Positions 15,382 to 57,362 of a stretch of DNA of 60,153 nucleotides are shown one piece after another. This stretch comes from an uncultured Bacilli bacterium (GTDB taxonomy: Bacteria > Bacillota_I > Bacilli_A > RF39 > UBA660): the NCBI GenBank assembly GCA_947632345.1, contig CANROW010000003.1, forward strand, positions 1-60,153, written 5' to 3'. How positions within the stretch are numbered: the stretch's first letter is position 1; every line of letters begins with the position of its first letter. The position numbers and the translations under genes are program-made. The notes under the pieces were generated by a model, which was not told the DNA's origin, did no database searches, and saw nothing but the letters and a program-made list of their open reading frames with translations.

Positions 15382-16155
15382 TTACTGGCTATCAATTTTC
15401 TTAACTAATTGTTTGTTCTTATTCACACGATAGTCTTTAACTATTTTTTGGGTGATGGGATCTAATACTGTAATATCAACAGGAGTTCTTTTAAGAATGT
15501 CTACTCTATTTTTTTCAATTAAATCTTCCAATTTCTCCCGATCTACCCATTCTCTATTTATAATTCCCTGTTGATCAATTGATGGATTAATTGCTATTTC
15601 CATATCCACATCGCCAATAGCGTTATACGACAATTTAAATACAAACAAATCATTAGAAAAAATAGAAGTTTTATTACGTTCAGGTAAATAGAATGGAGCT
15701 GTACCTATCTCAGAAAATTGATAATAATCATACATTCTTTCCAAATCACTAAAGATTTGTTTTAAATTTTCATAATTGTCTCTAACAAATCTTTTTACAT
15801 CCCCTTTTGAGGCATCAAGTCTTTCAGAATAAATGACGTCATTATCATGATCTTTTTTTATGGTGGCAAAATCATAATATGTATTATTGAAAACATTAAT
15901 CATTGAGTATTGAGCTGTAGCTAAACACATAACATCAATCTTTTGTTTTACTGGTATTAAACCAAAAGCTTTTGTTTTTAGTTGGAGAGACTGGGCTGCT
16001 CTATCTTCAAACGACCGCAATTCATCAAGTTTATCATCAACTATTTGATATAATTCAAAAGCACTAATGACATCATTTTGGCATAAATCGCCATATATTT
16101 CTGGACGCAATAAATATTCCTTTATTAGATTTAATATTCTTGTGTATACATCCAT
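15382..16155 (-). CDS. Orphan tandem paralog 3 of 3
   Basis: Shares YTRILN.I.EYLLR.EI.GDLCQN.VISAFELYQIVDDKL and KRTPVDI with the two upstream genes. Confidence 0.85.
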   Translation of the reverse strand: MDVYTRILNLIKEYLLRPEIYGDLCQNDVISAFELYQIVDDKLDELRSFEDRAAQSLQLKTKAFGLIPVKQKIDVMCLATAQYSMINVFNNTYYDFATIKKDHDNDVIYSERLDASKGDVKRFVRDNYENLKQIFSDLERMYDYYQFSEIGTAPFYLPERNKTSIFSNDLFVFKLSYNAIGDVDMEIAINPSIDQQGIINREWVDREKLEDLIEKNRVDILKRTPVDITVLDPITQKIVKDYRVNKNKQLVKKIDSQ

Positions 16156-16234
16156 AACGAAACCTCTTAAAAATAACTACTTCTTCTTGAATAGCGTCTT
16201 AGATAAATTAGCTGATTCAATGTACATTTTTTTA

Positions 16235-17002
16235 TTACTGGTTATCAATTTTCTTGACTAAATGTTTATTCTTATTCGCACGATAGTCTTCTACTATTTT
16301 TTTGGTGACGGGATCTAATACTGTAATATCAACAGGAGTTCTTTTAAGAATGTCTACTTTATTTGTTTCAATTAAATCTGTCAAATTTTCCCGATCTACC
16401 CATTGTCTATTTACAATTCCCTTTTGGTCAATGGATGGATCAATTGTTATTTCCATATCCACATCGCCAATAGCGTTATATGACAATGTCAATACAAACA
16501 AATCATTTAAAATAGAAGGTCGATGATAATTTCCAGATGAATATGGTGTACCAAGGTCAGAAAATTGATAATAATCATATAATCTTTCTAAATCATTAAA
16601 GATTTGTTTTAAATTTTCATAATTGTCTCTAACAAATTTTTTTACATCCTCTTTTGGTTCGCTAGATTGTTCAAAATAAATGGCTTCATCATTATGATCT
16701 TTTTGTATGGTGGTAAATTCATAATATTTATGATAAAAAATATGAATAGATGAGAATCCAGCATGAGAATAACAATTAACCCTAAGTTTTTGTTTTACTG
16801 GTATTAAACCTAAAGCTTTTGTCTCTAGTTGGAGAGATTTGGTTGCTCTGTCATCAAACGAGCGCAATTCATTAAGTTTATCATCAACTATTTGGTATAA
16901 TTCAAAAGCACTAATAACATCATTTTGGCATAAATCGCCATCTATTTCTAGACGCAATAAATATTCCTTTATTAAATTTAATATTCTTGTGTATTCATCC
17001 AT
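16235..17002 (-). CDS. Orphan tandem paralog 2 of 3
   Basis: Same conserved blocks; AGGAGG RBS. Confidence 0.85.
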   Translation of the reverse strand: MDEYTRILNLIKEYLLRLEIDGDLCQNDVISAFELYQIVDDKLNELRSFDDRATKSLQLETKALGLIPVKQKLRVNCYSHAGFSSIHIFYHKYYEFTTIQKDHNDEAIYFEQSSEPKEDVKKFVRDNYENLKQIFNDLERLYDYYQFSDLGTPYSSGNYHRPSILNDLFVLTLSYNAIGDVDMEITIDPSIDQKGIVNRQWVDRENLTDLIETNKVDILKRTPVDITVLDPVTKKIVEDYRANKNKHLVKKIDNQ

Positions 17003-17075
17003 TACAAAACCTCCTACTACTTTTTCTTGAATAGCGTCTTAGATAAATTAACTAATTCAATGTACAATTTTTCTA

Positions 17076-17837
17076 TTACCTGTTATCCATTTTTTTAACT
17101 AGATGTTTATTCTTATTCGCACGATAGTCTTCAACTATTTTTTTGGTGACGGAATCTAATGCTGCGATATCAACAGGCGTTCTTTTAGCAATGGCTATTT
17201 TATTTTTTTCAATTACATCTTTCAAATTCTCCCGATCTACCCATTGTCTATTTACAATTTCTTTTGGGTCAACTGAAGGATTAATTGCGATTTTCATATC
17301 AACCTCGCCAATAGAGTCATATGACAATTTCAATACAAACAAATCACTGATAATAGAAGGTTGATTACAATATTCAGATAAATGTGATATACCTATGTAA
17401 GGAAATTGATAATAATCATACAACCTTTCCAAATTATTAAAGATTTGATTTAAATTGTCATAATTGTCTCTAACAAATTTTTTTACATCCTCTTTTGGTG
17501 CCCAAGATTGTCCCAAATAAAAAGCTTCATCATCACGATCTTTTTTTAAGCAGATAAGTTCATTTTGATAAAAAATATCAATCCTTGAGTATGCGCCAAA
17601 AGAATAACACATAACACTAAGCTTTTGTTTTTTAGGTATTAATCCTAAAGTTTTTGTCTCTAGTTGGAGGGATTGAGCCGCTCTTTCATTAAACGAACGC
17701 AACTCATCAAGTTTATCATCAACTATTTGGTATAATTCAAAAGCACTTATGACACAATTTTGACATAAATCGCCATCTATTTCTGGACGTAATAGATATT
17801 CCCTTATTTGATTTAATATTCTTGTGTATTTTCCCAT
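17076..17837 (-). CDS. Orphan tandem paralog 1 of 3
   Basis: Same conserved blocks; AGGAGGGG RBS. Confidence 0.85.
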   Translation of the reverse strand: MGKYTRILNQIREYLLRPEIDGDLCQNCVISAFELYQIVDDKLDELRSFNERAAQSLQLETKTLGLIPKKQKLSVMCYSFGAYSRIDIFYQNELICLKKDRDDEAFYLGQSWAPKEDVKKFVRDNYDNLNQIFNNLERLYDYYQFPYIGISHLSEYCNQPSIISDLFVLKLSYDSIGEVDMKIAINPSVDPKEIVNRQWVDRENLKDVIEKNKIAIAKRTPVDIAALDSVTKKIVEDYRANKNKHLVKKMDNR

Positions 17838-17858
17838 GACAACCCCTCCTAAAAATTA

Positions 17859-18590
17859 CTACTTTTTCTTGACAAGTGTCTTAGATGAATCGGCTGATTC
17901 AATCTTGAATTGTTCCATCTTGTTTTTAGCATCTTCTATAGCATCTTGTGGTAAAGCAGGTAAAGAATCTTCAAAACATAAGAAACCGGATAAATCGATA
18001 TCTTCCTCACTACCATTATCTTGAACAGGTATTTCTTGGACGGTTTGATTCAAATTGTTCTTTATTCCAAATTGGGCGTTAGCTTGTTTTAACATCTCAA
18101 AACATTTTACTTGGTTATGACGCTTCGCACTCATTAAAGCTGTATCACCATCTTTGCATTGCGCATTGATATCAGCCCCTAATAAAATGCATAGTTCTAA
18201 AATTTTATCATTGCCATGTCTCGCACTAGTCATAGTTGGTGTCGTTCCGTATTTGTTACATTCATTCACATCGCACCCAGCCTTAATACATAGGAGAAAT
18301 AAATCAAAATAATTACGACGAGCACTTTTGAGGAGAAGAAAATCACCTTTTTTAGGGGAACGATAATTCAAATTAGCCCCTTGTTGAATTAAGTATTCTT
18401 GGTGTTTAATCGACATTTTACCACAGTCTTTATATAATCTTTCCCCTAGAAGATCAGCTTCAAATTCATCCACTTCTTCAATACTTTTTTTGAACTCTTC
18501 AATACTTTCTGAATCAATTCCCAATTCCTTTAATTTCTTTAAACGTTCATCGTCAACATTGTTAATGACAATATTTTTCACTTTTATCAC
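17859..18590 (-). CDS. Ankyrin repeat protein
   Basis: GTTPTMTSARHGN..ILELCILLGADINAQCKDGDTALMSA; about 3-4 ankyrin repeats. Confidence 0.88.
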   Translation of the reverse strand: MIKVKNIVINNVDDERLKKLKELGIDSESIEEFKKSIEEVDEFEADLLGERLYKDCGKMSIKHQEYLIQQGANLNYRSPKKGDFLLLKSARRNYFDLFLLCIKAGCDVNECNKYGTTPTMTSARHGNDKILELCILLGADINAQCKDGDTALMSAKRHNQVKCFEMLKQANAQFGIKNNLNQTVQEIPVQDNGSEEDIDLSGFLCFEDSLPALPQDAIEDAKNKMEQFKIESADSSKTLVKKK

Positions 18591-18598
18591 TCTTCTTT

Positions 18599-19294
18599 CT
18601 ATTTGTGAGCATTAATAATTTTCTTCATTTTTACTCGAGCTTGCTCAAGCAATTCTTGAGGAGATAATTCTTTTGAATAAATAATAGTATCTTTTTCTTC
18701 TTTCCTATCTTCCATTATAATTTTTTTATTCTTTTCATATTCTATAGCTTCTTTTAGAAAATTGGCGGTTTGAAAGTTTTTACTTATAGTAGCATAATCT
18801 AAAGCTGACAAGTAATAAACGTCTCTTTGTTCAAGATGAGCACCTAATAAATACAATAGTTTTACATTATTCAATTCATATGGCAGACGAGCCAAAATTA
18901 TAAGTGGTGAAGGATGATTATCGTCAAACTGATTAAAATCTGCTCCCGCACGAATAATGGACCAAAATAGTTCGTCTAAAAGGCCAACCTTATCAGGATT
19001 CTTTACTTTTTGGGTAGCTATTTTATTTAAGAAACAAAAATAATCAAAATCTGTCCCTTTTCTTACCGCATCAAGCCAATCATAATCATATTCACCATTC
19101 AAATATATATATTTTTCTAATTGTGCAGCTCGTTCATAATATGAATAATCGCCCAAATCAAAGTGCGATTGTTCTTGATGATCCTGGAATATTTTCATAC
19201 TTTCGTCATCAAGTTCATAAGACTTTAAAATTTCATCGCGACGATTATTGAGTTCCTCAACATTTAAATCACTTATATCTATTTTATTTCCCAT
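18599..19294 (-). CDS. Ankyrin repeat protein (duplicate copy)
   Basis: IRAGADFN..D....SPLIILA...NVKLLYLLGAHLEQRD.YYLSALDYA; start set at MGNKID by homology with its paralog. Confidence 0.82.
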   Translation of the reverse strand: MGNKIDISDLNVEELNNRRDEILKSYELDDESMKIFQDHQEQSHFDLGDYSYYERAAQLEKYIYLNGEYDYDWLDAVRKGTDFDYFCFLNKIATQKVKNPDKVGLLDELFWSIIRAGADFNQFDDNHPSPLIILARLPYELNNVKLLYLLGAHLEQRDVYYLSALDYATISKNFQTANFLKEAIEYEKNKKIIMEDRKEEKDTIIYSKELSPQELLEQARVKMKKIINAHK

Positions 19295-19323
19295 AATTTT
19301 TTTTACCATTCAAGCACTTTCTT

Positions 19324-20028
19324 CTATTTGTGATCATTGACAATTTTCTTCATTTTTACTCGAGCTTGGTCAAGCAATTCTTGAGGAGATAATTCTTTTG
19401 CTGAAATAATCATATCTTTTTCTTCTTCCCTATCTTCCCTTCCAATTTTCTTATTATTTTCATATTCTATAGCTTCTTTTAGAAAATCGGCAGTTTGGAA
19501 GTTATTACTTATAGTAGCATAATCTAAAGCTGACAAGTAATAAGCGTCTCTTTGTTCAAGATGAGCACCTAATAAATACAATAATTTTACATTATTCAAT
19601 TCGTGTGGCAAGCGGGCCAAAAGCATAAGTGGTGAAGTAGAATTCTCGTCACAACGATTTAAATCTGCTCCAGCACGAATAATGGACCAAAAGAGTTCAT
19701 CTAAGAGACCAAATTTATCAGGATTCTCCACTTTTTTCGCAGCTATTTTATTTAAGAGACAAAAATAATCAAAACCTGTCCCTTTCCTTACGGCATCAAG
19801 CCAATCATAATCATATTCACCATTTGAAGAGATATATTCTCTTAATTTTACAGCCCGTTCATAATCTAAATAACTTTCCAAATAATTGCCCGAATCGTCT
19901 GATATGTCTTGATGATCCTGGAATATTTTCATACTTTCGTCATCAAGTTCATAAGACTTTAAAATTTCATCGCGACGATTATTAAGTTTCTCAACATTTA
20001 AATCACTTATATCTATTCTATTTCCCAT
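19324..20028 (-). CDS. Ankyrin repeat protein (duplicate copy)
   Basis: Highly similar to 18599-19294 at both DNA and protein level. Confidence 0.82.
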   Translation of the reverse strand: MGNRIDISDLNVEKLNNRRDEILKSYELDDESMKIFQDHQDISDDSGNYLESYLDYERAVKLREYISSNGEYDYDWLDAVRKGTGFDYFCLLNKIAAKKVENPDKFGLLDELFWSIIRAGADLNRCDENSTSPLMLLARLPHELNNVKLLYLLGAHLEQRDAYYLSALDYATISNNFQTADFLKEAIEYENNKKIGREDREEEKDMIISAKELSPQELLDQARVKMKKIVNDHK

Positions 20029-20034
20029 AATTTT

Positions 20035-20558
20035 TCACCATTCAAGCACTTTCTTCATCTTTTTTTTAGCCATTTCCAAAGCATCAGCTGACGTCATATT
20101 CTGTTCATAGTCCATAGCTTCTTTCAAAAATTCTCTATCTTCAGTTTTTACAGCATAATCAATTGCTCTTTTTTCGTCTTTATCAACGGCAAAAAGATCA
20201 GCTCCTAATAGATATAACAATCTTATTTCATCACCCCAATTTGTTTTACGGCATACATAAGAGCAGTTTTTCCTTCACTATCACAAGCATTTATATCTGC
20301 TCCAACGCGAATTGAAGGAATGAAAAGAGCAAACAAAGCCAAATTACGAATACTTGGCTCATATGGTAACCATGGAGACTCCTTCGTCACATAATCAAAT
20401 AATTGTTGCGTTGAAATATTAATTCTTTCATCAGTAGGTGGGAAAAGACGTCCATACTTTTTTAGACTTCGATTATCCAATTGATAATAGTGCAAAATTT
20501 CCTGTCGGTTAGCGTTTAACTCCTCAACACTCATATCCATTATATTTAGATTTGCCAC
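20035..20558 (-). pseudogene. Ankyrin repeat gene split by a 1-nt frameshift
   Basis: Adding one A to the A4 run at 20244-20247 joins GKTALMYAVK to TNWGDEIRLLYLLGADLFAVDKDEKRAIDYAVKT as one ORF. Confidence 0.75.
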
Positions 20559-20573
20559 AACTAGATTACCTCC

Positions 20574-22355
20574 TTAACTTTCATAGTGTTTTGTTTTCTG
20601 TTTTCCCTTATCCATAATTCGTTTAGCGGCTTCCCTAACTTTATCCAAATCCGTACACTGAATATTGGATACTGTTTCCAAAACATCACAACTATCGTTA
20701 CCATAAATTACAACACTATAAACATCGGAATCGACACTATCACAATCAATTTTATTTTGATCGTTCGCCAAAGATAATTGATCATCATTATAAACTAGCC
20801 AGTTAATAGAATAAGAGTACGTCTTCTTTCCCTTACCTACTTGATCATAAACTTGTCCCATAAAGGAGATAAAATTTTTGATATCCACTAAATAAGTAGA
20901 AGGCATTACTACTTGTGATGACATAAAGCGATAACGCGATTTTCCATCATTATCTATATCATTAATAACTATTAATTTCAAATCGTCATCATCTTTTAAT
21001 AAAACGCCATTTTCATAAATCTTTACATCTAAATCAGCGGCATATTTTATTAAATTATTAATTAACGCATCATGTGGTAAATCAGAAAAATATATTTCCC
21101 CCATATCAGTCCATTCACTATTAGCGGAACCAAAAATATCGTATCCCCGTTTGACATAGCAGGTTTCATCACCAAAGTTTCTAACGAGATTTGGTATTGA
21201 TGGTGTTAGAACTAACTGACCATTTTGTAATTTGATTTTTTTAATTTCTTCATCTATTTCAGCTTTTTTCTTCTTTTCCATTTCTTCAAATGTCTTGGTA
21301 TATTCAGTAATTAAATCTTCCATCATTTGGGTTTTATCTTTTAATTCGTTATATTGGTCAACAAATATGGATTCAGCCATTATTTGTTTTAAATCCATAG
21401 TAGTATCAATTTGTGTATCAGATTGCATTTCCTCAATCAATTTCTTTAAACCTTTATCTTTAGATTTTTTGATGCTGGATTCAAAGCTCTTAACATCATC
21501 TTCGATTTTTAACATATCTTCAATAATGTTGGTATAGACGTCCTTTTTACAAAATCCTCCCATCTGAATTAAAAGATAGGCATCCATAATAGCTTGTTTA
21601 CACTCGGAACAAGAAGGGAGTTTGGTATACAAGTCACGATGATCATATATTTCTTGATAGATTAAAGTAACTAAATTTAATAACCCGCCATCGAGATTAT
21701 TATCATCAGTAAATTTTTGAAGAATAGAAAACATTCGACTAGGTTCCATATAGTCAAGTCTAATAATTTTATTTCTTCGCATCATCGGTTCTGACAAATC
21801 TACCCGCATATCATTTTTACATAAAAACACTTGAAGTTTACCAAAATTTTCAGGATTTATTTTGACATCACCATGTTGAATAGTGTTAACTATTCCTTCT
21901 TGTAAAAAGTTATTGAAAAAAGTATCTGTTGAATCACGAGCTTTATCGTACTCATCCATTTTTACGATGACGTAATGCCCCTGATTAACTATATTAATGG
22001 CTTTTAAAATCGTTCCTGGAAGTCTTATCTTCGATGTGTCATTCTCAAACGTTGCGACGACGTCAACATCTTCATATAAATCGCTCTTACCTGTTTCGGC
22101 ATCCAATTGATAGTTTATGAAATCAATTTTTTCGCCGAGCAATTCAGAAGCTACTTTGGTATATGCTTCAACAAAACTTGTTTTTCCGGCACCACTAGGT
22201 CCATCTAAACAAAGCGAAAATACTTCTTGTCCAAATGACTGTTTATTTAGTAAATAATACAAACCTAAATAGGCTTTCGACAATATATAATCTTCCAAAA
22301 AGTAATTGTTTTTTTCAAATAATTTTTTTAGTTCTTCTTTTGTAATCTTCATCAT
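20574..22355 (-). CDS. MoxR/dynein-related AAA+ ATPase with coiled coil and C-terminal extension
   Basis: Walker A LDGPSGAGKT, Walker B IVKMDEYDK, FLQEG, LSEPMMRR arginine-finger region. Confidence 0.8.
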   Translation of the reverse strand: MMKITKEELKKLFEKNNYFLEDYILSKAYLGLYYLLNKQSFGQEVFSLCLDGPSGAGKTSFVEAYTKVASELLGEKIDFINYQLDAETGKSDLYEDVDVVATFENDTSKIRLPGTILKAINIVNQGHYVIVKMDEYDKARDSTDTFFNNFLQEGIVNTIQHGDVKINPENFGKLQVFLCKNDMRVDLSEPMMRRNKIIRLDYMEPSRMFSILQKFTDDNNLDGGLLNLVTLIYQEIYDHRDLYTKLPSCSECKQAIMDAYLLIQMGGFCKKDVYTNIIEDMLKIEDDVKSFESSIKKSKDKGLKKLIEEMQSDTQIDTTMDLKQIMAESIFVDQYNELKDKTQMMEDLITEYTKTFEEMEKKKKAEIDEEIKKIKLQNGQLVLTPSIPNLVRNFGDETCYVKRGYDIFGSANSEWTDMGEIYFSDLPHDALINNLIKYAADLDVKIYENGVLLKDDDDLKLIVINDIDNDGKSRYRFMSSQVVMPSTYLVDIKNFISFMGQVYDQVGKGKKTYSYSINWLVYNDDQLSLANDQNKIDCDSVDSDVYSVVIYGNDSCDVLETVSNIQCTDLDKVREAAKRIMDKGKQKTKHYES

Positions 22356-22358
22356 TTA

Positions 22359-24479
22359 CTACATCTCCTTTACTTTAACTTTATTACCATTATCGACATA
22401 ACACAAAGTCTCAAATCTCTTTTCATTTACTTTGATTAGTCCATCTAATATATCATTAGCGTTGTGAACAGGATAAATAAATCCATTAAAATTATCAAGA
22501 TCATATCGACCATAGCTATGTTCAAAACAGAACCAATAAACTTGCGTTTTTTTGGAGAGATTAATCACTTCATAGCGAGGATCAAAATCGGAAAAGACAA
22601 CACACTTTTCAGCTTTTTTATCAATTAAATAATTATCAATATTGCGATTAATAAGTTTATATTTGATATGACAAATATCTGATCTTTGAAGAAAAGAATC
22701 TACAGTTTGACTAAAACCAGCACTTTGTAAAAGAAGAGCCAAATCTTTAACTTCGATATTCTTATCCGCACTTTCAAATTGTACATTTACGCGTTCATTA
22801 AATCCCACTAATACCTTGACATCTTTTTTCAACAATTCAATAGCAATGGTCGCCAATAAATTACTATAATTACTCATGCTTCCTGACATATCAAAATAGA
22901 AGGATAATGGCACATTTTCATTTTTTCCATCAGCATAATCATAGCCATATTTATCATTTAATACTTTGGTCAATTGATGAGTTTTAGAGTGAACGATGAC
23001 ATCTTTAATATTCCATTTGTAAAAGCCAGCGCTCTTTTCTAAAGAATTGGTTCGATGATTTAAATCGCTATTTCGCTTACAAAATCTTTGATTTAAAAAT
23101 TTACTGATCAAAGTCCGAAAAATACTTTCAGGTAATTCGGTATTACTATTTGCATCAATAGAATAACCAGGACCTCGTTCACGATTTTCAAAAGAAGGCA
23201 ACTCACCTAAACGATCAAAAAATTCATTGCGCGGTTGATTAGTAGTATACTGTTGTTCTTCTGATGGTTCAAATGGTTCTTTCTCCGGTTGTAGATTTTC
23301 ACGTTGCGGATCACTTTTTTGTTCTGGAGACGCCTCTTTGTCACTCTTCTCACTACTTTCCTGTGGCTTTGGATCACTATCAGGAACTTTGTCCATCTCC
23401 GTAGAATCTTGCGGACTCATCTCTTCTGATGAGATAGTTGAATCAACATTCTCATCTGGTGATGTGCTTTGTTCATCATCTTTAGATTTTGATGAATCAG
23501 CATCACTTTCTTTTTCGTTTGAAGTATCTTTTTCTTCTAAATCAGTACTTTCAGAATTCTTATCCTTTTTCTTTGAAAAAGATGAATTATTATCTGATGT
23601 TGATTTCGAAGAAGTAGTATCATCAACATCTTGAGCTTCTGTCTGCTCACCATTACTACTATCTAACTCTCTATCTAAATCTGTTTTATCAGATTCATCC
23701 ATTTCTATTGTTTCGCCTTCTTCCGACAAATTCAATTCATTGTCACTTGTTGATGAAGCATCAGATTCTTCTAATTCATCAGCATTCATTTGACTACCAC
23801 CATCACCATTGGAATTATCTGATTCGCCATCATCACCAGTAGCGTCATCATCCGGCAAATCACCATCTAGCGGTAAAGAAGAAGATGGTAATTGTTGTTG
23901 AAAAAAGGATTCACTTTCAACATTGGCATCACTTTCCCCTTCTAAATTTTGATTATCATCAATTTCTTCCTCACTCACCATTGCGACAGTAATGTCGGTT
24001 TGATCACCACCACTACTTTCTGAATCTTCTGGCGGATTGGATTGTTCACTTTCTTCTAGTGCTGGGGATGAAGATGGTGAAGAATTTGGTTTTTGATTGC
24101 TTCCACCTAGTTGGTTTGTATTAAACTCAGACTCTTCTTCACCTTTTTCATTAGAAGATTGATTTTCACCCTTACTTTGATTGTCTTCTAAACTATCACT
24201 AGATTTTTGTTGGCCTTGTGAGCCTTCTAAATTATCACTTGGTTCTTGTTGGTCTTGAGAACCTGCACCATCTTTTTGAGATTCATTTTCACTAGTTGAA
24301 GAATCCTTTTCTTTTTGTGGTTGATTGGCTTTTTCAATTTCATTCCTATCATCATCCCCTGCCGATGATTGGTCACTATCATCAACTTGAGGACTTTGCG
24401 ATTGCTCAGAATTATCTTTTTTTGAATCTTCACCATTATCGCTTTCTAACATATCTTTGATAAACTTCCAAAATTTCAC
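22359..24479 (-). CDS. VWA (MIDAS) domain protein with a long acidic low-complexity N-terminus
   Basis: FYFDMSGSMS (DxSxS), VLVGFN, VVFSDFD; about 400 aa rich in S/D/E/Q. Start placed at GTG 24479, downstream of a GGGGG RBS and a consensus promoter. Confidence 0.75.
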   Translation of the reverse strand: MKFWKFIKDMLESDNGEDSKKDNSEQSQSPQVDDSDQSSAGDDDRNEIEKANQPQKEKDSSTSENESQKDGAGSQDQQEPSDNLEGSQGQQKSSDSLEDNQSKGENQSSNEKGEEESEFNTNQLGGSNQKPNSSPSSSPALEESEQSNPPEDSESSGGDQTDITVAMVSEEEIDDNQNLEGESDANVESESFFQQQLPSSSLPLDGDLPDDDATGDDGESDNSNGDGGSQMNADELEESDASSTSDNELNLSEEGETIEMDESDKTDLDRELDSSNGEQTEAQDVDDTTSSKSTSDNNSSFSKKKDKNSESTDLEEKDTSNEKESDADSSKSKDDEQSTSPDENVDSTISSEEMSPQDSTEMDKVPDSDPKPQESSEKSDKEASPEQKSDPQRENLQPEKEPFEPSEEQQYTTNQPRNEFFDRLGELPSFENRERGPGYSIDANSNTELPESIFRTLISKFLNQRFCKRNSDLNHRTNSLEKSAGFYKWNIKDVIVHSKTHQLTKVLNDKYGYDYADGKNENVPLSFYFDMSGSMSNYSNLLATIAIELLKKDVKVLVGFNERVNVQFESADKNIEVKDLALLLQSAGFSQTVDSFLQRSDICHIKYKLINRNIDNYLIDKKAEKCVVFSDFDPRYEVINLSKKTQVYWFCFEHSYGRYDLDNFNGFIYPVHNANDILDGLIKVNEKRFETLCYVDNGNKVKVKEM

Positions 24480-24504
24480 AAACATCCCCCACTTATGGCT
24501 TTTT

Positions 24505-24533
24505 ATTATATTTTCTTCAAGCAATTTAGTCAA
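24505..24533 (-). promoter_or_regulatory. SigA-type promoter for the VWA-AAA-ankyrin operon
   Basis: TTGACT-17 nt-TATAAT on the minus strand. Confidence 0.7.
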
Positions 24534-24552
24534 CAATTTTTACCGGTTTTCC

Positions 24553-24581
24553 TTGAATTTTCAAGGCAAACAGATTATAAT
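24553..24581 (+). promoter_or_regulatory. SigA-type promoter for the LRR genes
   Basis: TTGAAT-17 nt-TATAAT; the -35 lies within the palindrome CCTTGAA-TT-TTCAAGG (24551-24566). Confidence 0.65.
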
Positions 24582-24610
24582 ATAGAGCTAATTAAAAAAG
24601 GGGGAATATT

Positions 24611-27600
24611 ATGAAAGTCATAGATGGCATATTACAAGAAGTTTGTAATGAAGATTTAAATGATGGACACTTTGACATCCCCAATGGGATCGTTAAGATT
24701 CGTCAAAGTGCTTTTAGTAATTGTTCAAAGTTAAAATCGGTATTTTTTCCACAATCTGTCATTGAAATTGGCAATCGAGCTTTCAAAAATTGTCGTGCTT
24801 TAGAAACTGTCATTATGAGTCCTAATGTTAGAAAAATTGGTCGCCAAGCGTTTTGTAATTGCTTTAATCTGTCAAAACTTGATTTGCCTTCTAACCTCGA
24901 AGAATTGCATGATGAAGCTTTTAAGAATTGTCAAAGCATCAAAAAAATTAACATTCCTCCCCTTTTAACCAAACTTCCTAATAACGCTTTTTTAAATATG
25001 CGTTCTTTAGAAGATATTACTGTATCTCCCGACAATAAAGCTTTTTCAACATTTGAACATAAAATTCTCATTGACAATCACCTTCAAGCGTTAATCTTGT
25101 ATGCAGCAGGTTGTCCAGACAAAACATTTTCTTTAAAGGACTATTGTGTTAGCAACGATAATGGTTCAGAATCAGAAATTATAAATTATATGACTTCCGT
25201 TATAAGTTTTATAACTTCAATAGGAAGTTATGCTTTTGCTGGAGCTAAAAATCTTGAAGAATTGACTATATGTTCTTGTACTGATCAAATTAGTGCAAAT
25301 GCTTTTAAGGATTGCGACAATTTAAAAACTCTCAATGTTGAAGGGATTCCTTTTTCTAGCTCACAATTTCTCTTTATTAATTTAGAAAATAGAGCTAATG
25401 CCAAAGAACTAGATATACCACCATTTCCTTTTGAGACAATCAATTTTAAAGGGGATTTTGTTAGAATTGGCTTTGAAGCATATTCCTTTTTGCCAGTTAA
25501 TGGTTATCAATCAAGTTTTAGAAATGTAAAAAACGTAACATTGCCTACAAATGGTAGTTACCTAATCGACCGTCAAGCTTTTTCCAATTCTTGTCCAAAT
25601 TTAGAAAAAGTCTTCATCCCAGCAGCTGTCTCACGAATAATAGATAATGCTTTTCCAAGCACAACCGAATTAATATTTGAAAATGGTTTACATTTTAAGA
25701 ATTTACATAATATGGAACGTGATGTAGATTTTCTTGGCGAATACGAACTATACGCTTTAAATGATGAAGATGGGACATACTTCATAAAACATGGCGATAA
25801 CGTCATGACAATTACCAAAAAACAAATTCAAAACATATGTTCCCATCCCAAAGAAATTTTATCAAATCCCATCTTATTTATAACCTATATGAATGATTTA
25901 CTGGAACATGACTTAGTCATCAAACCACTACTAAATGGCATCTTGATGACGAGTATGGGTGAAAAAACAAAAAGAATTTTATTTGCCAACTTAAAAAAAG
26001 ATGACGCTTTCTTTATCAACGTCTTAGAAAACAGCAAATTGTTAGACGAATTGGACGAAGATACCAAAGACCTATTATCGTGGGACAATCACTTCAATAA
26101 AGTAATCGACTATATCAATGTTTTACGAAAATATAACATAACTGATCCCATCTTACACCATAAAATTCTCATGAATAAATATCCGGTTGAAAAATTGGAA
26201 CAATTAATTAAATTGGATCTACCACTACTCGAAAAAATATTAACGGAAAGTCATTTTTTTGATAGTGATCTTTCTAATATGCCTAAACCAGTTCTCACTT
26301 TGACAAATGCTATTTTAGCTAATGATAATTTGACGACTTTTTTCAATCTAATCAAAAAGTATGACATAAAAGATAAGTATCTCTATAACAAACACTTTAT
26401 AGGTATAGCTGATAATCCCCTCTTTGCCCAAATGCTCAAAGTATATGACGCCAATACGAAAAGAGTTTTAAAAATGAGTCAAGCAATTAATGATCATTCA
26501 ACTGATTTAGAAAATTTAGCTAATTTACTCATCCTTATGAAAATAACGGGGGCTTTAGAAGAAGATGCAATTACCAGGCAAAGAGCTAGTACTTTTATTT
26601 GTGAAAAAATTTTTGATGAGTATTTGCCAACAGGTGAAAAAAATGCGCATTGCATAGTCGGTGACGATCTCCATCGCATCTTTAATTTTAAAGATGTTTG
26701 TAATGAATTTGATGAAGGATATGCGAAATTCTTCCTCGAAAATTATGCCCAATTATATGAAGAAGAGAAAAATAGATCAGGATTTATTGAAAGAACCTAT
26801 GCTAACTTTAAAATACTTTGTAAAACTAATACTTCTCATAAAGGTGAACAAAGACCATTAAAAGTGACAATTGATAAATGTCGCAATTACTTTAATGAGA
26901 TAAAATTTGATGGTGTCACTGAGGATTTAATAGAATTAGCCGCAAAACTTGGTAAATGGTTTGATAAAAATGAAGATTTTATCAAAGCTAAAGGAGTTTA
27001 TTATGAATCCTTTGAAGCTCCAAGGAATATCTTTACCTCTAGCTATATAGATGATGTTGGTAAAGTTATTTATGACAATTCCCCAACTAATGATTTGCGT
27101 GAAGAGATAAGTCCGGACTTTTCTTATGAGTGGCTTCCAAAGCAAGATGCTGACAACTTAATTTTGGGAAAATATTGTAATTGTTGTGCTCACGTGGCAG
27201 GAGCTGGTTCTGGTATTATGCGAGCTAGTATGATCAGTCCGGATTGTCAAAACTTAATCATTCGTGATGGCCACGGTCAAATCGTTGCGAAAGCTACTAT
27301 TGCTGTTAATCGTGAACAAGGTTATGCCGTCTTTAACACGATAGAATCATCCCTAAGTGTTCGTTATAGTAGTATTTTAACCAAAATAACCAAGGCCTTT
27401 TTACGAGGAACGAAAGCTTTCTTTGATTCTTATAACACAAATAATCCTGACCAACCATTAAAAGAAATAACTGTTGGCAGTAAGAGAAACACCATTTTTG
27501 ATTTTCTCGATGATGAAAAATATCCAACCGTTCCAGTTCATCAGTCTTTGAAATATGGCGATTATGCCATTACAAACTTCGGTTATGATGGTGATTGGTC

Positions 27601-27637
27601 CGTTAGTCAAAAATTATTAATTAAAAGTAGGAGGTGA
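24611..27637 (+). CDS. BspA-type leucine-rich repeat (LRR_5) protein with conserved Cys-rich C-terminal domain
   Basis: Repeated I...AF.NC..L..V..P..V..I units; C-terminal YEWLPKQ..DNLILGKYCNCCAHVAG; no signal peptide. Confidence 0.85.
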   Translation: MKVIDGILQEVCNEDLNDGHFDIPNGIVKIRQSAFSNCSKLKSVFFPQSVIEIGNRAFKNCRALETVIMSPNVRKIGRQAFCNCFNLSKLDLPSNLEELHDEAFKNCQSIKKINIPPLLTKLPNNAFLNMRSLEDITVSPDNKAFSTFEHKILIDNHLQALILYAAGCPDKTFSLKDYCVSNDNGSESEIINYMTSVISFITSIGSYAFAGAKNLEELTICSCTDQISANAFKDCDNLKTLNVEGIPFSSSQFLFINLENRANAKELDIPPFPFETINFKGDFVRIGFEAYSFLPVNGYQSSFRNVKNVTLPTNGSYLIDRQAFSNSCPNLEKVFIPAAVSRIIDNAFPSTTELIFENGLHFKNLHNMERDVDFLGEYELYALNDEDGTYFIKHGDNVMTITKKQIQNICSHPKEILSNPILFITYMNDLLEHDLVIKPLLNGILMTSMGEKTKRILFANLKKDDAFFINVLENSKLLDELDEDTKDLLSWDNHFNKVIDYINVLRKYNITDPILHHKILMNKYPVEKLEQLIKLDLPLLEKILTESHFFDSDLSNMPKPVLTLTNAILANDNLTTFFNLIKKYDIKDKYLYNKHFIGIADNPLFAQMLKVYDANTKRVLKMSQAINDHSTDLENLANLLILMKITGALEEDAITRQRASTFICEKIFDEYLPTGEKNAHCIVGDDLHRIFNFKDVCNEFDEGYAKFFLENYAQLYEEEKNRSGFIERTYANFKILCKTNTSHKGEQRPLKVTIDKCRNYFNEIKFDGVTEDLIELAAKLGKWFDKNEDFIKAKGVYYESFEAPRNIFTSSYIDDVGKVIYDNSPTNDLREEISPDFSYEWLPKQDADNLILGKYCNCCAHVAGAGSGIMRASMISPDCQNLIIRDGHGQIVAKATIAVNREQGYAVFNTIESSLSVRYSSILTKITKAFLRGTKAFFDSYNTNNPDQPLKEITVGSKRNTIFDFLDDEKYPTVPVHQSLKYGDYAITNFGYDGDWSVSQKLLIKSRR

Positions 27638-27641
27638 AAAA

Positions 27642-29906
27642 ATGGAATATGATAAAAATAGTAAAGTTATTGTCATACCGGAAGGAACAGTAGCAATTCC
27701 TGAGCAAGCTTTTAAAGATTTTACTAATCTTGAAGAAGTTATTTTACCAGATTCAGTTGAATCGATAGGCGTTAGTGCTTTTGAGGGATGTACTTCCTTA
27801 AAGAAAATCAATTTACCAGAAAACTTACAAGCGATTTATCCGCATGCTTTTTGGCATACAGATAAACTTGAGACCATCTCTCTTCCCAAACATATATTTT
27901 ATATTGGTAACGAGGCTTTTTCAGATCCTACTACTATTCTCTTTGACGAATTAGAACCCATTGCTGCTTCCAATCTAGTGTTTTTAGGTTTTGGTGATCG
28001 TTGCGGATATCTACTTTTAAAAGATGGACGATACTTTGGTACTATGCGACTATCAGGCTATGGATATCTTCCAGTCCAACCTGAACAAATACAAGAGATA
28101 ACTAATCACGATTATTACATAAATGTTGTTGGAAAAAAGAAGTTTATATTTGATGAAATAGATGGTGAAATTATTGTTAAACAAATTGATGTCGAAGACA
28201 ATAATGAGACTTGGGTAATTGACACGGGCTGGAATACCAATATTTTAGGAAATAACTATGATTTACAGCCATATCAAGATTTCTTCTTCAAATCCCCAGC
28301 TATTATTTATCTTCTATATGAAGAAATGAAAAAACAAGCTCTAAATCTTTTAGAACAGTATAATATAAAAGATAGTATTTTAAATAAAATTGTTGAAGAA
28401 AACCATGTAGATAACACCAATCCCCTTTGTAAAGATACAATAGAGTTTCTAGCTCGTAATATTAGTCCAACCCTCGAACAATTCATTAAGCATAATTATC
28501 AAAACAAATGTTTATACCTACCCTTTTGGTTTAAAAATAATGACTATCTGCTTGATTATTGTCAATTATTAGATCAATATCACCGCCAAGATGGAGCTTT
28601 GTTAAAATCCCACTTTGCTATGTCACTTCCTACTACATATCAAATAAAATTATTAAAGTATTGGAATCCCCATATTAAAAGAGTTCTTCAAGCTTTTGAT
28701 TTGGATAAAATACCAATTGCGATGTATGAAAGCATCATAGACAAGCCTTATTTTGAAAATATTAATAAGTGGGGATCTGAGCTAGATGCACGATTAATTC
28801 CCGTATTCAATCTATTAGAAACAATGGGAGCCTTTACTTTTGATAAAAAACAGAGTCAACAGAGTTGCAACTTTATTGTTGAAAATTTAATTGATAAAGA
28901 TATATCATGTTTTACTTATATTGAACCACGAGAGGAATATGATCGAGAATTTAGTGAATTTTTTAAAAAGAATTACCAAGAATTATTTACGATTGAAAGT
29001 AATACTAAACATTTTATTGAGAGTATCTATAATCAATTTCGCTTCATATCAAAAACCAGTTCTTCAAATAGGGGTAGTCAGCATCATTTAAAAGTTACTC
29101 TTGATAAATGTAAGAGTTTCTTCTTGATGAATGATTTTGGAAAAGTAGCTGATACTGATCGCGTTTTAGCCGAATATCTCGGTAAATACTATTCTGACAT
29201 CGACGTTTTAAAAGCTGCTAAATTGATTATCCAAGAAGCACAAATGGCACCACGAAATATTTTTACCAACGATAATAATCCTCAAAACGACATCAATGGG
29301 TTATCCGAAAGCGGTCTATATTATGAGTGGTTACCAAAGCAGTCTCTTGACAATTTAATTCTCGGTAAGCTATGTAATTGTTGTGCTCACGTCGCTGGTA
29401 ATGGAGCTGGTGTTATGCGAGCTAGTATGATTTTAAATAATTGTCAAAATCTAGTCATTCGCGATGAAAACAAAAATATCATTGCTAAGGCCACTCTGCA
29501 CGTCGACAAAGAAAAAGGCTATGGCGTTTTCAACGTTCTTGAAATATCTAACGAATATTTTCCTGTTAATACAAGTGAAATTGATGATGAACAAGATGCC
29601 TATTTCACTAATTATTGCGATGAAAAATTGGAAAGAATATACACAACTTTTATGGATGGATGTCACCGGTTTATTGAACAATATAATATTAATAATCCTC
29701 ATAAACCTATTACTACTTTAACCATTGGTACGAGAAAAAATCTCTTAAATGGTGAGTTTGAAAAACACGGTAATACGGATACTACTCCACTACCATCACT
29801 CGATTACTCTATGTTTGCTTTCTATAATCAAAATGAAATTATTGGTAATTGGCACAATGATCACGATAAAGGACAAAAACTTCTATATAAAAAGGAAAAA
29901 GCCTAA
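27642..29906 (+). CDS. BspA-type LRR protein, paralog with fewer repeats and the same C-terminal domain
   Basis: IPEQAFKDFTNLEEVILPDSVESIGVSAFEGCTSL; YEWLPKQSLDNLILGKLCNCCAHVAG; AGGAGGTG RBS. Confidence 0.85.
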   Translation: MEYDKNSKVIVIPEGTVAIPEQAFKDFTNLEEVILPDSVESIGVSAFEGCTSLKKINLPENLQAIYPHAFWHTDKLETISLPKHIFYIGNEAFSDPTTILFDELEPIAASNLVFLGFGDRCGYLLLKDGRYFGTMRLSGYGYLPVQPEQIQEITNHDYYINVVGKKKFIFDEIDGEIIVKQIDVEDNNETWVIDTGWNTNILGNNYDLQPYQDFFFKSPAIIYLLYEEMKKQALNLLEQYNIKDSILNKIVEENHVDNTNPLCKDTIEFLARNISPTLEQFIKHNYQNKCLYLPFWFKNNDYLLDYCQLLDQYHRQDGALLKSHFAMSLPTTYQIKLLKYWNPHIKRVLQAFDLDKIPIAMYESIIDKPYFENINKWGSELDARLIPVFNLLETMGAFTFDKKQSQQSCNFIVENLIDKDISCFTYIEPREEYDREFSEFFKKNYQELFTIESNTKHFIESIYNQFRFISKTSSSNRGSQHHLKVTLDKCKSFFLMNDFGKVADTDRVLAEYLGKYYSDIDVLKAAKLIIQEAQMAPRNIFTNDNNPQNDINGLSESGLYYEWLPKQSLDNLILGKLCNCCAHVAGNGAGVMRASMILNNCQNLVIRDENKNIIAKATLHVDKEKGYGVFNVLEISNEYFPVNTSEIDDEQDAYFTNYCDEKLERIYTTFMDGCHRFIEQYNINNPHKPITTLTIGTRKNLLNGEFEKHGNTDTTPLPSLDYSMFAFYNQNEIIGNWHNDHDKGQKLLYKKEKA

Positions 29907-29920
29907 AAATAGGCTTTTTT
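29896..29920 (+). terminator. Intrinsic terminator after the LRR pair
   Basis: AAAAGCCTA-AAAA-TAGGCTTTTTT. Confidence 0.75.
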
Positions 29921-30074: not shown

Positions 30075-30836
30075 CTATTTATCAATAACAATCTTATCTC
30101 TATCTAAATAAACTATAATATTTCTTTTCAGAAGATTATTTTTATTATTGATCTTTTCCTTGCCATCATAAATATAATATTGCGAAGAAACATCATATAA
30201 AGATGGATTACTAGAAACTAATAGATAGCTATCTTTTATTTCATTGAAACGCTTTTCAGATATGTCACCAGTTAAGTAAATAAAATTGTTACCTTCGCTA
30301 ACTCTAACCATTAAACCTTTATCTTCCATTGAAGCATCATTAATATATGGATAGATATCAATTTCCAAATCCCCAAAATTAATTTTTTCATCATTAGTCA
30401 ATGTTACATTAATCGCAAAATTATCTTGGAGAGTTTCCTCAAGTTGTGAAATATTGTCTGAAGTATATAAATAATCATTTAAATAGACATAACTGACCTG
30501 ATAATTTTCTAAAATAAAACTGGCATTCTCAATACATTTATCATCACGATTGGTCAATATTAAATAATCTATTTTCTGAATATTGTTGATCTGTAAAGAA
30601 TCTAATAATTCTAATAAATCCTCTTCAAGACCCGTATCTATTAAAACTACTAAATCATTCTTTTTAATTATTTCTATTTCTGAATTACCAAGATCATAAA
30701 AATAAATTTGTGTTGCCAGATCACGATCAATTGCCTTTTTATCCTCATTTTTATTTTGTAAGAATAAAGCTATTACCAAGATTAAAATTATCAAGATAAT
30801 GCCAAGTAAAAGGAAAAGTCTATTCTTCTTATTCAT
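30075..30836 (-). CDS. Membrane-anchored ComEC/Rec2-like metallo-beta-lactamase-fold protein, degenerate
   Basis: IYFYDLG, VLIDTG, IDYLILT, IYLTGD; the HxHxDH motif is replaced by NRDDKC. Confidence 0.65.
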   Translation of the reverse strand: MNKKNRLFLLLGIILIILILVIALFLQNKNEDKKAIDRDLATQIYFYDLGNSEIEIIKKNDLVVLIDTGLEEDLLELLDSLQINNIQKIDYLILTNRDDKCIENASFILENYQVSYVYLNDYLYTSDNISQLEETLQDNFAINVTLTNDEKINFGDLEIDIYPYINDASMEDKGLMVRVSEGNNFIYLTGDISEKRFNEIKDSYLLVSSNPSLYDVSSQYYIYDGKEKINNKNNLLKRNIIVYLDRDKIVIDK

Positions 30837-30906
30837 TCTATCACCTATTATAATATCATTATATCACGATTTAATATTTTATGTAAAAAGAACCGATGAT
30901 TCGGTT

Positions 30907-31605
30907 CTATGATTTGTTCTTTTTAGAAATAATATCTTTTGCTGATGCCGTAATCTTATTTAGTGCATTTAAAAATTTGTTATTATTAGATTCTTCTTTA
31001 TCATTTTCTTTGAGAACCGGTAAATTTTTAAAATTTAAACCAGCATTATTTTCTATCATTGTAAAATTTTTATCAATATAAAAAATCTCTTCTGGCTTTT
31101 TACAAGTTCCTTTTGTCACCCATTTTCCTCTATTGTTTTGAATTGATTTAGTACTACTACCAATACCACAAGTAAAATGGATATGATTAGCGTTCGCTGT
31201 TTCTTGACCTTCAAGACATATTTTTTCACCAGCTTTAATTATCTTCCCAACTTTAAGGCCAAATTTTGCGATATCACTATCTTCAAAATGCACGGCAGTC
31301 ATAAATATTTTCGTAGTTCCAAAAGCTGGTGTTTTGACTGGATTAACAGACTCTAAAAATATTTTATTTGATATATTTGGATTACCGATACCATTAAGAG
31401 CAGTTATCTTCATATCAACTGGCGCATATAGATAATCACGACCACCATCCATTCCCGCTATATCAATTGGATAATCTTTGTAATTGGTCTCTTTCCAATG
31501 ATCAATGTGATTTCCACTATTATAACTTTGAGTAATTCTTAAATAATGCATTGGAAACTTTGCATAGTCTTCATACCCTTTAGTAAAACTGAATGCCATT
31601 TTCAT
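30907..31605 (-). CDS. Putative M23-family (LytM-like) peptidase
   Basis: ITQ.Y...NH, YPIDIAG, LYAPVD, VH, G..IKAGE.I..EG, HIHF. Confidence 0.55.
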   Translation of the reverse strand: MKMAFSFTKGYEDYAKFPMHYLRITQSYNSGNHIDHWKETNYKDYPIDIAGMDGGRDYLYAPVDMKITALNGIGNPNISNKIFLESVNPVKTPAFGTTKIFMTAVHFEDSDIAKFGLKVGKIIKAGEKICLEGQETANANHIHFTCGIGSSTKSIQNNRGKWVTKGTCKKPEEIFYIDKNFTMIENNAGLNFKNLPVLKENDKEESNNNKFLNALNKITASAKDIISKKNKS

Positions 31606-31701
31606 TCCTCCTATCTCTTCTCTCTAATATATTATAAGGAGAAAAAGAAAAGGAGAAACTGCGAATATCATAAGAAAAAAAGCTATATTTATAGCTTAAA
31701 G

Positions 31702-31974
31702 TTATTTATTTTTTATTGTTTTCTTTAAAGTGTATCCCTGTTCTTCTAAAAAAGTTTTAGAGCCACTCAAGGCTGAATCAAAACCATTACCATTAACGTT
31801 TTTGGCACATTCCTGACGTTTCTTTTCCGCTTCTAGTTGACTTTCAAATTCATCTGACCTTCGCATTACGTTGTCAAAATATTCATAATCTAAATCTTCC
31901 TTTAAAACTTTACATTTTGAACAAGCCATCTTATTCTCTAATTGCTTTTCTTTTTTTAAAAATTCATTTTCCAT
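31702..31974 (-). CDS. Hypothetical protein
   Basis: 90-aa ORF with AAGGA RBS and its own terminator hairpin at 31675-31697. Confidence 0.55.
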   Translation of the reverse strand: MENEFLKKEKQLENKMACSKCKVLKEDLDYEYFDNVMRRSDEFESQLEAEKKRQECAKNVNGNGFDSALSGSKTFLEEQGYTLKKTIKNK

Positions 31975-56152: not shown

Positions 56153-56215
56153 ACCATCACTCTTTCTAAAATAATTATATATGTGCCGAAACTAAAAAAC
56201 AACCATATTTTTTTA

Positions 56216-57352: not shown

Positions 57353-57362
57353 AATTCACTCA

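Follow-up and report, generated by a model that had tools for sequence, protein, structure and literature searches.

Organization of the locus

The stretch of DNA analysed here, called the window, comprises positions 1 to 60,153 of contig CANROW010000003.1 of an uncultured Bacilli bacterium (assembly GCA_947632345.1), and between positions 15,382 and 29,920 it carries a module made up of an AAA+ ATPase gene, a gene for a predicted VWA/MIDAS protein, four ankyrin-family genes, three orphan paralogs and two genes for proteins with leucine-rich repeats (LRRs). When the open reading frames (ORFs) of the window were checked, all eleven were found at the positions given in Table 1, nine on the minus strand and two on the plus strand, which is the arrangement described in an earlier reading made from the letters alone (the sequence-only reading). 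For the VWA gene, the ATG at 24485 is the probable start in place of the TTG of the listed ORF; a promoter-like site lies inside the listed TTG-ORF and a G-rich stretch precedes the ATG. With this start the two divergent transcription units are separated by 125 bp. The sequence-only reading had placed back-to-back consensus promoters in a gap of about 130 bp. Such sites are indeed correctly placed, with 11 of 12 consensus positions on the minus strand (24533 to 24505) and 10 of 12 on the plus strand, but they are as frequent in the window as in shuffled sequence (80 found, 78 expected) and thus do not rise above chance. The maximum hydropathy over 19 residues was at most 1.45 across the module proteins and no transmembrane (TM) or signal-like segment was found in them, as had been claimed, and the GC content is constant across the module.

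Table 1. Features of the module and their positions in the window
Feature	Position	Strand	Remarks
Orphan paralog A	15382..16155	-	257 aa; family homologous to the C-terminal domain of a 662-aa ATPase variant
Orphan paralog B	16235..17002	-	255 aa
Orphan paralog C	17076..17837	-	253 aa
Ankyrin protein	17859..18590	-	243 aa; ortholog of the ankyrin gene next to the ATPase gene in 38 related loci
Diverged ankyrin-family paralog	18599..19309	-	236 aa
Diverged ankyrin-family paralog	19324..20028	-	234 aa; 80% identical to the 18599..19309 paralog
Fourth ankyrin-family paralog, frameshifted	20035..20558	-	Listed ORF 20223-20558 (111 aa)
AAA+ ATPase	20574..22355	-	593 aa
VWA/MIDAS protein (predicted)	22359..24485	-	708 aa from the ATG at 24485 (listed ORF to 24536, 725 aa)
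Divergent intergenic region	24486..24610		125 bp; one promoter-like site per strand (consensus matches)
LRR protein	24611..27637	+	1008 aa; LRRs, long middle region, predicted GNAT-fold C-terminus; CNCCAH at residue 856
LRR protein paralog	27642..29906	+	754 aa; architecture as in the 1008-aa paralog; CNCCAH at residue 578
Terminator-like hairpin	29896..29919		Pattern match; spans the stop codon of the second LRR gene; placed on the minus strand by the scan

Recurrence and distribution of the module

Relatives of the module were collected as 61 loci from a scan of one genome per species, in which ORFs were called and their products clustered. The titles of these loci name uncultured Bacilli, 'Tenericutes/Mollicutes', Erysipelotrichaceae and Clostridia bins. 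A VWA-domain gene stands directly upstream of the ATPase gene in 59 of the 61 loci, an adjacent VWA partner gene being a trait of the MoxR clade of ATPases. In 49 loci the ATPase is shorter than 640 aa and there is no f5 gene; in 44 of these the downstream DNA amounts to at least 900 bp, and in 19 the contig reaches 5 kb or more upstream of the VWA gene. An ankyrin gene was found in 39 of the 44, adjoining the ATPase gene in 38 loci, and one or two LRR genes on the opposite strand were found in 15 of the 19. Across the loci the copy numbers range from 0 to 5 for ankyrin genes, 0 to 3 ORFs for LRR genes and 0 to 3 for orphans, and the genomic context differs from locus to locus. The linkage of the ATPase/VWA pair to ankyrin genes, to LRR genes and, in the closest relatives, to orphan genes is therefore recurrent, whereas an absence of such linkage in other genomes was what the sequence-only reading had named as the finding that would overturn it. 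That the module is one inherited or functional unit and no chance neighbourhood is a conclusion that we hold with clearly more confidence than the functional explanation offered below.

Two variations in layout were seen among the relatives. In 10 of the LRR-carrying loci a gene of about 260 aa (f4), which the window does not have, stands between the LRR and VWA genes. In all, f4 is present in 12 loci (L006, L007, L009, L014, L018-L020, L022, L023, L025, L027 and L039; for example L018:7090-7884), and its product consists of two tandem copies of a domain of about 115 residues with invariant H, Q, Y, T, E, K and W that belongs to no Pfam family. A match of one of the two f4 members scanned to Tox-REase-9 (0.0034) was below the cut-off and was rejected as evidence that f4 is a nuclease. 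In ten other loci (L048-L053, L057, L058, L060 and L061, nine of them titled Clostridia or Clostridium) the VWA gene is followed by a gene of about 108 aa, of no recognised family, and by an ATPase of 683 to 838 aa; these loci have no ankyrin gene, and some of them continue with conserved genes of about 110 aa and 250 to 280 aa.

When 301 genomes sampled across the order were searched with the ATPase profile, matches were found in 11, of which 7 were full-length and strong; counted over high-quality genomes the figure is 10 of 299 and over genera 8 of 127. This patchy distribution fits an accessory module and not a core one. Of the two further genomes from the genus of the window organism, G017 is 97% complete, and neither the ATPase nor the C-terminal domain of the LRR proteins had a match in it; only the DnaB_2 gene is shared in synteny with the window, and upstream of it other genes stand in G017. 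In the window genome itself the ATPase and VWA genes are single and the orphans and ankyrins were found only at this locus, so that the earlier claim of a single-copy VWA/AAA+ pair among duplicated repeat and orphan genes is borne out, within a genome that is 78% complete.

The genes of the module have diverged to very different extents. Compared to the two closest relatives, the identity is 89% for SerRS and 79% for DnaB_2, which are encoded nearby, 63-71% for the VWA domain, 57-64% for the ATPase, 35-51% for the LRR proteins, 38-44% for the ankyrin protein and 30-33% for the orphans. This gradient, together with the variable copy numbers, fits the idea of the sequence-only reading that a fixed core serves variable recognition modules.

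The AAA+ ATPase and the VWA/MIDAS protein

The ATPase belongs to a well-conserved family of about 600 aa from gut metagenomes. It consists of a P-loop core of about 300 residues, a predicted helical or coiled stretch, and a conserved C-terminal domain at about residues 385 to 593, and these C-terminal 200 or so residues form a domain that is common to most subtypes of the family. Walker A (GPSGAGKT, residue 52) and Walker B (DEYDKA, residue 134) are invariant in 13 sequences. The window ATPase matches Pfam AAA_5 only below the cut-off (1.7e-3), and in its relatives AAA_5 is the best Pfam family with 37-49 bits against a cut-off of 22, followed by Mg_chelatase. The Walker motifs and the Pfam matches of the relatives together place the family among AAA+ proteins. 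The match to AAA_5 is not specific because the Lon protease encoded in the window matches AAA_5 too (5e-11). No Pfam family and no sequence match in the PDB covers the C-terminal domain, and a PDB profile search with the ATPase gave nothing useful. The NCBIfam scan returned only repeat-level matches or matches far below threshold, such as MadB_ATPase (1e-9, against a cut-off of 475 bits), and neither the Pfam nor the NCBIfam scans gave a match to a characterised metabolic chaperone operon, the other finding that would have spoken against the sequence-only reading. A search of 50,697 phage records found nothing that matched the ATPase, plasmids gave only generic AAA matches of 25-28% identity, and a pattern scan of IMG/VR found neither the ATPase nor the C-terminus of the LRR proteins.

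In the VWA protein of the window only the last 290 residues (22362-23231) are conserved. The roughly 420 to 440 residues that precede them are an acidic tail of low complexity with 28% D+E and 8% K+R. Such a tail is a conserved trait: in 34 upstream regions of at least 30 residues that were uncut by contig ends, the D+E fraction ranged from 0.10 to 0.33, 22 of these regions being 227-531 residues and 12 being 46-180 residues in length. A 39-bp tandem repeat of 2.1 copies (24185-24264) lies inside the acidic tail of the window gene and hints that the length of the tail may vary through repeat slippage.

The assignment of the conserved part to the VWA fold stands on its predicted structure together with its motif. 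Pfam gave 0 families for the window protein, the VWA_CoxE profile reached E 0.18 in 2 of 15 members, and a PDB profile search with the domain gave no sequence match. When the domain was modelled with AlphaFold from 51 sequences the model was of moderate quality (pLDDT 65), and its top match in the VIA search was Rea1-MIDAS (Z 8.1, root mean square deviation 4.0, 171 residues aligned), followed at Z 7.6 by a second Rea1-MIDAS entry and MDN1-MIDAS, and at Z 7.4 by the VWA domain of NorD in its complex with NorQ. Foldseek returned many VWA chains with weak E values (1e-3 to 1e-2). The model thus has the alpha/beta fold of a VWA domain, with middling Z values. The DxSxS motif (D114, S116, S118) and the aspartates D215 and D217 are invariant in the 51 sequences, they appear in the window protein as DMSGSMS at residue 532 and FSDFD at residue 631, and when aligned with E. 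coli YehP they fall on its DxSGS and SDF segments; the MIDAS threonine could not be assigned. The domain forms the C-terminal 290 residues in 47 of the 51 aligned proteins, and in the other four (L052, L053, L057 and L060) a tail of 40-70 residues follows it. Because fold and motif agree, we accept the domain as a predicted VWA/MIDAS domain of the kind that partners AAA+ motors, and the name given in the sequence-only reading stands on these two grounds without any support from Pfam. A VWA/MIDAS family that is an orphan in sequence is thereby placed structurally, as similar to the Rea1/MDN1 MIDAS and NorD VWA domains in its predicted model, and the ATPase family gains a placement along with it. 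Complex predictions for the VWA domain, the ATPase C-terminal domain and the ankyrin protein gave 0.20 and 0.18 against a mark of 0.32 and were run without controls, and they are used neither for nor against an interaction.

The LRR proteins and their GNAT-fold domain

Both LRR proteins carry repeats of the BspA type (LRR_5, 1e-43 in the 1008-aa protein and 8.4e-21 in the 754-aa protein), followed by a long middle region with no Pfam matches and a strongly conserved stretch of about 260 residues at the C-terminus, in which W, P, Q, K, three Cys, one His and GAGxG are invariant in 24 sequences. When this C-terminal domain was modelled with AlphaFold the model was confident (pLDDT 92.5), and every match listed by Foldseek was to a GNAT-fold enzyme, with a probability of about 1 and E values down to 9.5e-5. 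Likewise, the top 50 rows of the wider VIA search were all GNAT-fold proteins, mostly acetyltransferases and a few other acyltransferases (Z 8.1-9.7), and these matches span residues 84-260 of the model with 123-149 residues aligned. The last 175 or so residues of the LRR proteins are therefore confidently modelled as a GNAT fold, which the sequence-only reading had not foreseen, and the invariant CxCCAH motif lies inside it. No Pfam acetyltransferase family was found among the 24 members at E up to 1, and a PDB profile search with the C-terminus gave nothing. A lead to PcfJ from the Atlas search (0.83, besides unnamed clusters) was dropped since Pfam scans of the 24 members did not reproduce it.

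The C-terminal domain defines a large family that has not been annotated, with 883 cluster representatives of which 362 match at E of at most 1e-30. The domain was at, or within about 50 residues of, the C-terminus in all 150 matches listed, and LRR_5 arrays were present in 7 of 10 sampled second-tier members, so that the family can be described as BspA-type LRR proteins ending in a CxCCAH domain with a predicted GNAT fold. In the sample of the order, close matches to the domain (E of at most 1e-100) were found in 4 genomes and in all 4 the ATPase was present on the same contig, 4-8 kb away; more distant CxCC-GNAT proteins were found in 9 genomes with no ATPase match. A 697-aa hypothetical protein of the Microcystis phage MaMV-DC, ORF68L (L071), has a CxCC segment that is 33% identical over 72 residues; this marginal match (E 5e-4) is the single link to phage that the searches gave.

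The ankyrin and orphan proteins

Four ankyrin genes had been counted in the sequence-only reading, and four paralogs are indeed present, but the fourth is broken by a frameshift. The protein encoded at 17859-18590 is a clear ankyrin protein in Pfam (Ank_2, 5.5e-18). The two members of the pair that follows it match Pfam Ank weakly and match the ankyrin-family profile A7 at 2e-43 and 9e-48, a match that is not independent since both are among the 33 rows of A7. In the fourth paralog, 20223-20558 encodes the front 111 aa and the remainder lies in another frame down to about 20035. Contigs from four runs of one sample are identical to the window at 19907-20388 and 20444-20605, and they are not independent support for the frameshift. 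Elsewhere the ankyrin genes are expanded, to five tandem copies at L031:5859-11872 and to two copies at L037:3894-6983, and four of the proteins of these expansions, about 510 aa long, have a long C-terminal part that is not ankyrin.

The three orphan paralogs are 64-72% identical to one another, and among the 61 loci homologs were found only in the two closest relatives. Between paralogs, the orphans have a ratio of nonsynonymous to synonymous substitution (dN/dS) of 0.55-0.79 and the ankyrin pair has one of 0.39, values that are raised and are not proof of positive selection. An Atlas search with the orphan found nothing. When a profile of seven orphan proteins was compared with the ATPases of the other loci, it matched residues 404-651 of the 662-aa ATPase that L046 and L047 encode, with an hhalign probability of 98.3-98.6% and E values between 1e-14 and 5e-16, and it did not match the usual C-terminal domain of the ATPase. 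No match was obtained with longer proteins, which is weak evidence. From the match to the 662-aa variant and not to the usual domain it follows, at the level of sequence profiles, that the orphan is a domain able to replace the C-terminus of the ATPase. This fusion is the clear clue that ties the orphan protein to the ATPase, it was not part of the sequence-only reading any more than was the break in the fourth ankyrin gene, and it argues that the free-standing orphans work with the ATPase motor.

A proposed function and its alternatives

The explanation that we favour is as follows. The core would consist of the AAA+ ATPase, its MIDAS/VWA co-factor, whose long tail is acidic and disordered, and at least one small ankyrin adaptor. 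In a physical complex of these the ATPase ring would grip the VWA protein, a picture drawn from NorQ-NorD, Rea1/midasin and the Mg/Co chelatase motors. In the closest studied AAA+/VWA pairs, as far as the available parts of the papers describe them, the ATPase ring grips the VWA protein and force is passed to a bound client (PMC13036017, PMC7159879). The MIDAS site may then hold an acidic residue of a partner and ATP hydrolysis may remodel that partner. The most probable partners would be the two divergently encoded cytoplasmic LRR proteins, whose LRR arrays would recognise a protein target and whose GNAT-fold domain, with CxCCAH and GAGxG, may acylate or otherwise modify a substrate. Remodelling of the LRR-GNAT proteins by the ATPase, VWA and ankyrin proteins could serve their activation, their reset or the maturation of the Cys/His site. 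The orphans and the ATPase C-terminal domain would probably be interchangeable adaptor or specificity modules. Most likely, such an assembly would sense phage or other invaders inside the cell and activate an effector against them, both licensed by ATP; a role in conflict is suggested by the rarity of the module, its varied genomic context, its changes in copy number and its faster divergence compared to its housekeeping neighbours. We give this combined explanation, that is the motor core with LRR-GNAT partners, orphan adaptors and a role in conflict, a probability of about 0.45, and a role in defence specifically a lower one. A bolder form of it, which we consider rather improbable, is that the module represents an unrecognised class of intracellular immune system in gut Firmicutes with reduced genomes, in which the LRR proteins would be cytoplasmic, NLR-like sensors of proteins from invaders, the GNAT domain an effector that acylates a component of translation or of the invader, and the AAA+, MIDAS and ankyrin proteins the machinery that licenses or resets them, with the orphans and the ATPase C-termini as swappable adaptors by which specificity is tuned.

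Several observations weigh against the combined explanation. LRR genes are missing in 4 of the 19 loci with enough upstream DNA and three ATPase-bearing genomes of the order sample have no close LRR-GNAT match, so the core can exist without LRR genes. The canonical acetyl-CoA motif Q/RxxGxG/A was not seen when alignment A5 was inspected by eye. The ATPase was called MoxR-like or MoxR-type in the sequence-only reading, and this is not established: when its core profile was compared with E. coli proteins by hhalign it was nearer to Lon (1e-8) and ClpX (7e-7) than to RavA (2.4e-3) and YehL (0.02), in a comparison of low power since the control, RavA against YehL, gave an equally weak 1.1e-3. The PADLOC check that had been proposed gave no system model beyond ankyrin-repeat and weak AAA matches: with PADLOC-DB 2.0 and ten of the module proteins (all but the 1008-aa LRR protein) there were matches to PDC-M72A (1.6e-16 and 3.5e-4) and to 'Ankyrin' (0.004), and the only other was a weak match of the ATPase to mad3 (0.0011). 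Apart from the GNAT fold, scans of the window and of proteins from the variant loci turned up no domain recognisable as a toxin, nuclease, protease or signalling effector. The 148 flanking proteins are mainly housekeeping proteins (FAD oxidoreductases, tRNA ligase, Mur ligases, FtsW, SMC), and types from mobile elements are few among them (ORF6N 5, PD-(D/E)XK transposase 3, recombinase zinc ribbon 3). A census of defence islands on these proteins (PDC-S05 5, mad3 3, mad8 3, HerA 1 and others) failed its control and was rejected: the mad3 model PDLC04135 matches at 21-30 places per genome in G301-G304, ORFs of 935-994 aa included, and it matches in all 14 control genomes, so strong 'mad3' matches are no evidence of defence islands. 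Finally, the window genome is incomplete and all of the relatives are metagenome bins.

What the core does to the LRR-GNAT enzymes could also have nothing to do with conflict. It may assemble them or insert a metal at CxCCAH, as the NorQD, CoxDEF and chelatase motors do for their clients, and the enzymes would then have some other task, such as the modification of proteins of their own cell in a particular niche. We consider a maturation chaperone of this kind rather unlikely. It would agree with the invariance of the three Cys and one His in 24 sequences, with the presence of the core in every genome found to have a close LRR-GNAT ortholog (4 of 4), with the lack of a known defence signature in the PADLOC scan, and with what the available parts of one paper say of the pairs of closest fold, NorD and Rea1-MIDAS, namely that they act on a specific client (PMC13036017). 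Metal binding by CxCCAH is, however, putative, the distribution is patchy (11 of 301 genomes), fast divergence and expansion of paralogs would be unusual for a plain maturation factor, and the core persists in the 4 of 19 loci that have no LRR genes. A role in ribosome biogenesis, considered on account of the Rea1-like MIDAS and RimJ-like GNAT matches, was rejected, as the patchy distribution argues against it.

Ankyrin and leucine-rich repeats are frequent in effectors of host-associated bacteria, and the eukaryote-like ankyrin and LRR proteins might accordingly be exported, whether to an animal cell, to a protist or to a microbe nearby, with the ATPase and VWA proteins as an unfolding or loading chaperone. 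The bacteria concerned are gut bacteria with reduced genomes, the repeat genes evolve fast, and the ankyrin protein has weak, repeat-level NCBIfam matches to Legionella Dot/Icm Ank effectors (E 2e-5, far below the cut-off). Nevertheless, signal peptides and TM segments are absent from the module proteins, a linked secretion-system gene was found neither in the window nor in the commonest families among the 148 flanking proteins, and the LRR-CxCC architecture is very widespread (883 cluster representatives, 7 of 10 sampled members with LRR_5), and we regard such an effector cassette as unlikely. Still less likely, in our estimate, is that the ATPase/VWA/ankyrin operon and the LRR pair are two units unrelated in function that are neighbours by descent, with the orphans as fillers. 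Divergent transcription, the loci where the core stands without LRR genes (4 of 19), the 9 genomes with distant CxCC-GNAT proteins and no ATPase match, and the confinement of the orphans to the closest relatives would all be in line with this. What it does not explain is that the head-to-head order survives down to 35-41% identity of the LRR proteins and about 40% identity of the ATPase in many genomic contexts, that all 4 genomes found to have close LRR-GNAT orthologs have the core too, and that L046 and L047 encode the orphan domain and the ATPase as one fused protein.

Comparison with known systems

The nearest described concept is that of the MoxR-vWA ternary conflict systems (Kaur et al., eLife 2020, PMC7159879; 2021, PMC8195603). 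As these systems appear in the available parts of the two papers, they have in common with the module an AAA+ gene, a vWA gene and a conserved third component, variable and diversifying accessory parts, and a proposed logic in which the vWA protein captures a peptide and the ATPase remodels the complex. The third components named there are VMAP, iSTAND, FtsH and beta-propeller proteins and, later, iSTAND2 and TERNS3 (PMC7159879, PMC8195603), whereas here the third component is a small ankyrin protein and not VMAP, iSTAND, FtsH, a beta-propeller or TERNS3. Pfam scans of the module gave no STAND, FtsH or beta-propeller domain, and no search was made for VMAP or TERNS3 as such. In the ternary systems, as described in those same parts, effectors are fused C-terminal to the vWA domain, whereas here the vWA domain is itself C-terminal behind an acidic tail and the candidate effector, the LRR-GNAT protein, is encoded by a separate and divergently transcribed gene. 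There the hosts are multicellular actinobacteria and cyanobacteria and here they are bins of gut Bacilli and Clostridia with small genomes, and, unlike in the MoxR-vWA systems so described, membership of the module ATPase in the MoxR clade is unproven. The module is thus an unnamed variant of the AAA+/vWA-centred 'ternary' theme that fits no described system. Full-text searches of the literature gave no description of this gene combination or of an LRR-GNAT fusion; the supplements of Kaur et al. were outside the scope of these searches, and related variants may be listed in them.

In structure, the predicted VWA domain is matched best by the NorQ-NorD and Rea1/midasin systems, and as with their AAA+ motors the adjacent AAA+ gene here has an AAA_5 match. 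In midasin and in the chelatase D subunits an acidic stretch precedes the MIDAS domain, and the VWA protein of the module resembles both in this. The module differs from NorQ-NorD and Rea1 in that there is no match at the level of sequence and no context of nitric oxide reductase or ribosome assembly, in its patchy distribution, by which its function is not a core one, and in the extra coiled segment and the C-terminal domain of no recognised fold in its ATPase. The predicted fold of the last 175 or so residues of the LRR proteins is that of the GNAT acyltransferases such as RimI, RimJ, RimL and the Naa proteins, and the GNAT toxins of toxin-antitoxin pairs are a further group of these enzymes. 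What sets the LRR proteins apart from them is the lack of a Pfam acetyltransferase match and of a visible canonical CoA motif, the family-specific invariant CxCCAH...GAGxG, and the fusion to BspA-type LRRs with a long middle region. Conversely, with the BspA-type surface proteins they have the LRR_5 repeats in common, and they differ from these in having no signal peptide, anchor or TM segment and are apparently cytoplasmic, with an enzyme-like C-terminal domain. Should the module prove to be a conflict system, bacterial immunity would gain a design in which an LRR sensor and a GNAT effector are licensed by an AAA+/MIDAS motor, and this design would lie in poorly studied, uncultured gut bacteria with very small genomes.

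Other features of the window

Around the module the window is ordinary chromosome, with genes for SerRS, the DnaB_2 replication protein, Lon, PNPase, a second aminoacyl-tRNA synthetase and teichoic-acid enzymes. Past the LRR genes, at 30075-31974 on the minus strand, there are small ORFs of 253, 232 and 90 aa that match no Pfam family and lack homologs among the 61 loci, and the N-terminus of the 253-aa product is strongly hydrophobic. At 55037-59960 on the minus strand there are three adjacent paralogous genes for CDP-glycerol glycerophosphotransferase (teichoic acid), one of which is fused to a family-2 glycosyltransferase. A cell wall containing teichoic acids is probable for this organism, despite the label 'Tenericutes/Mollicutes' that relatives carry.

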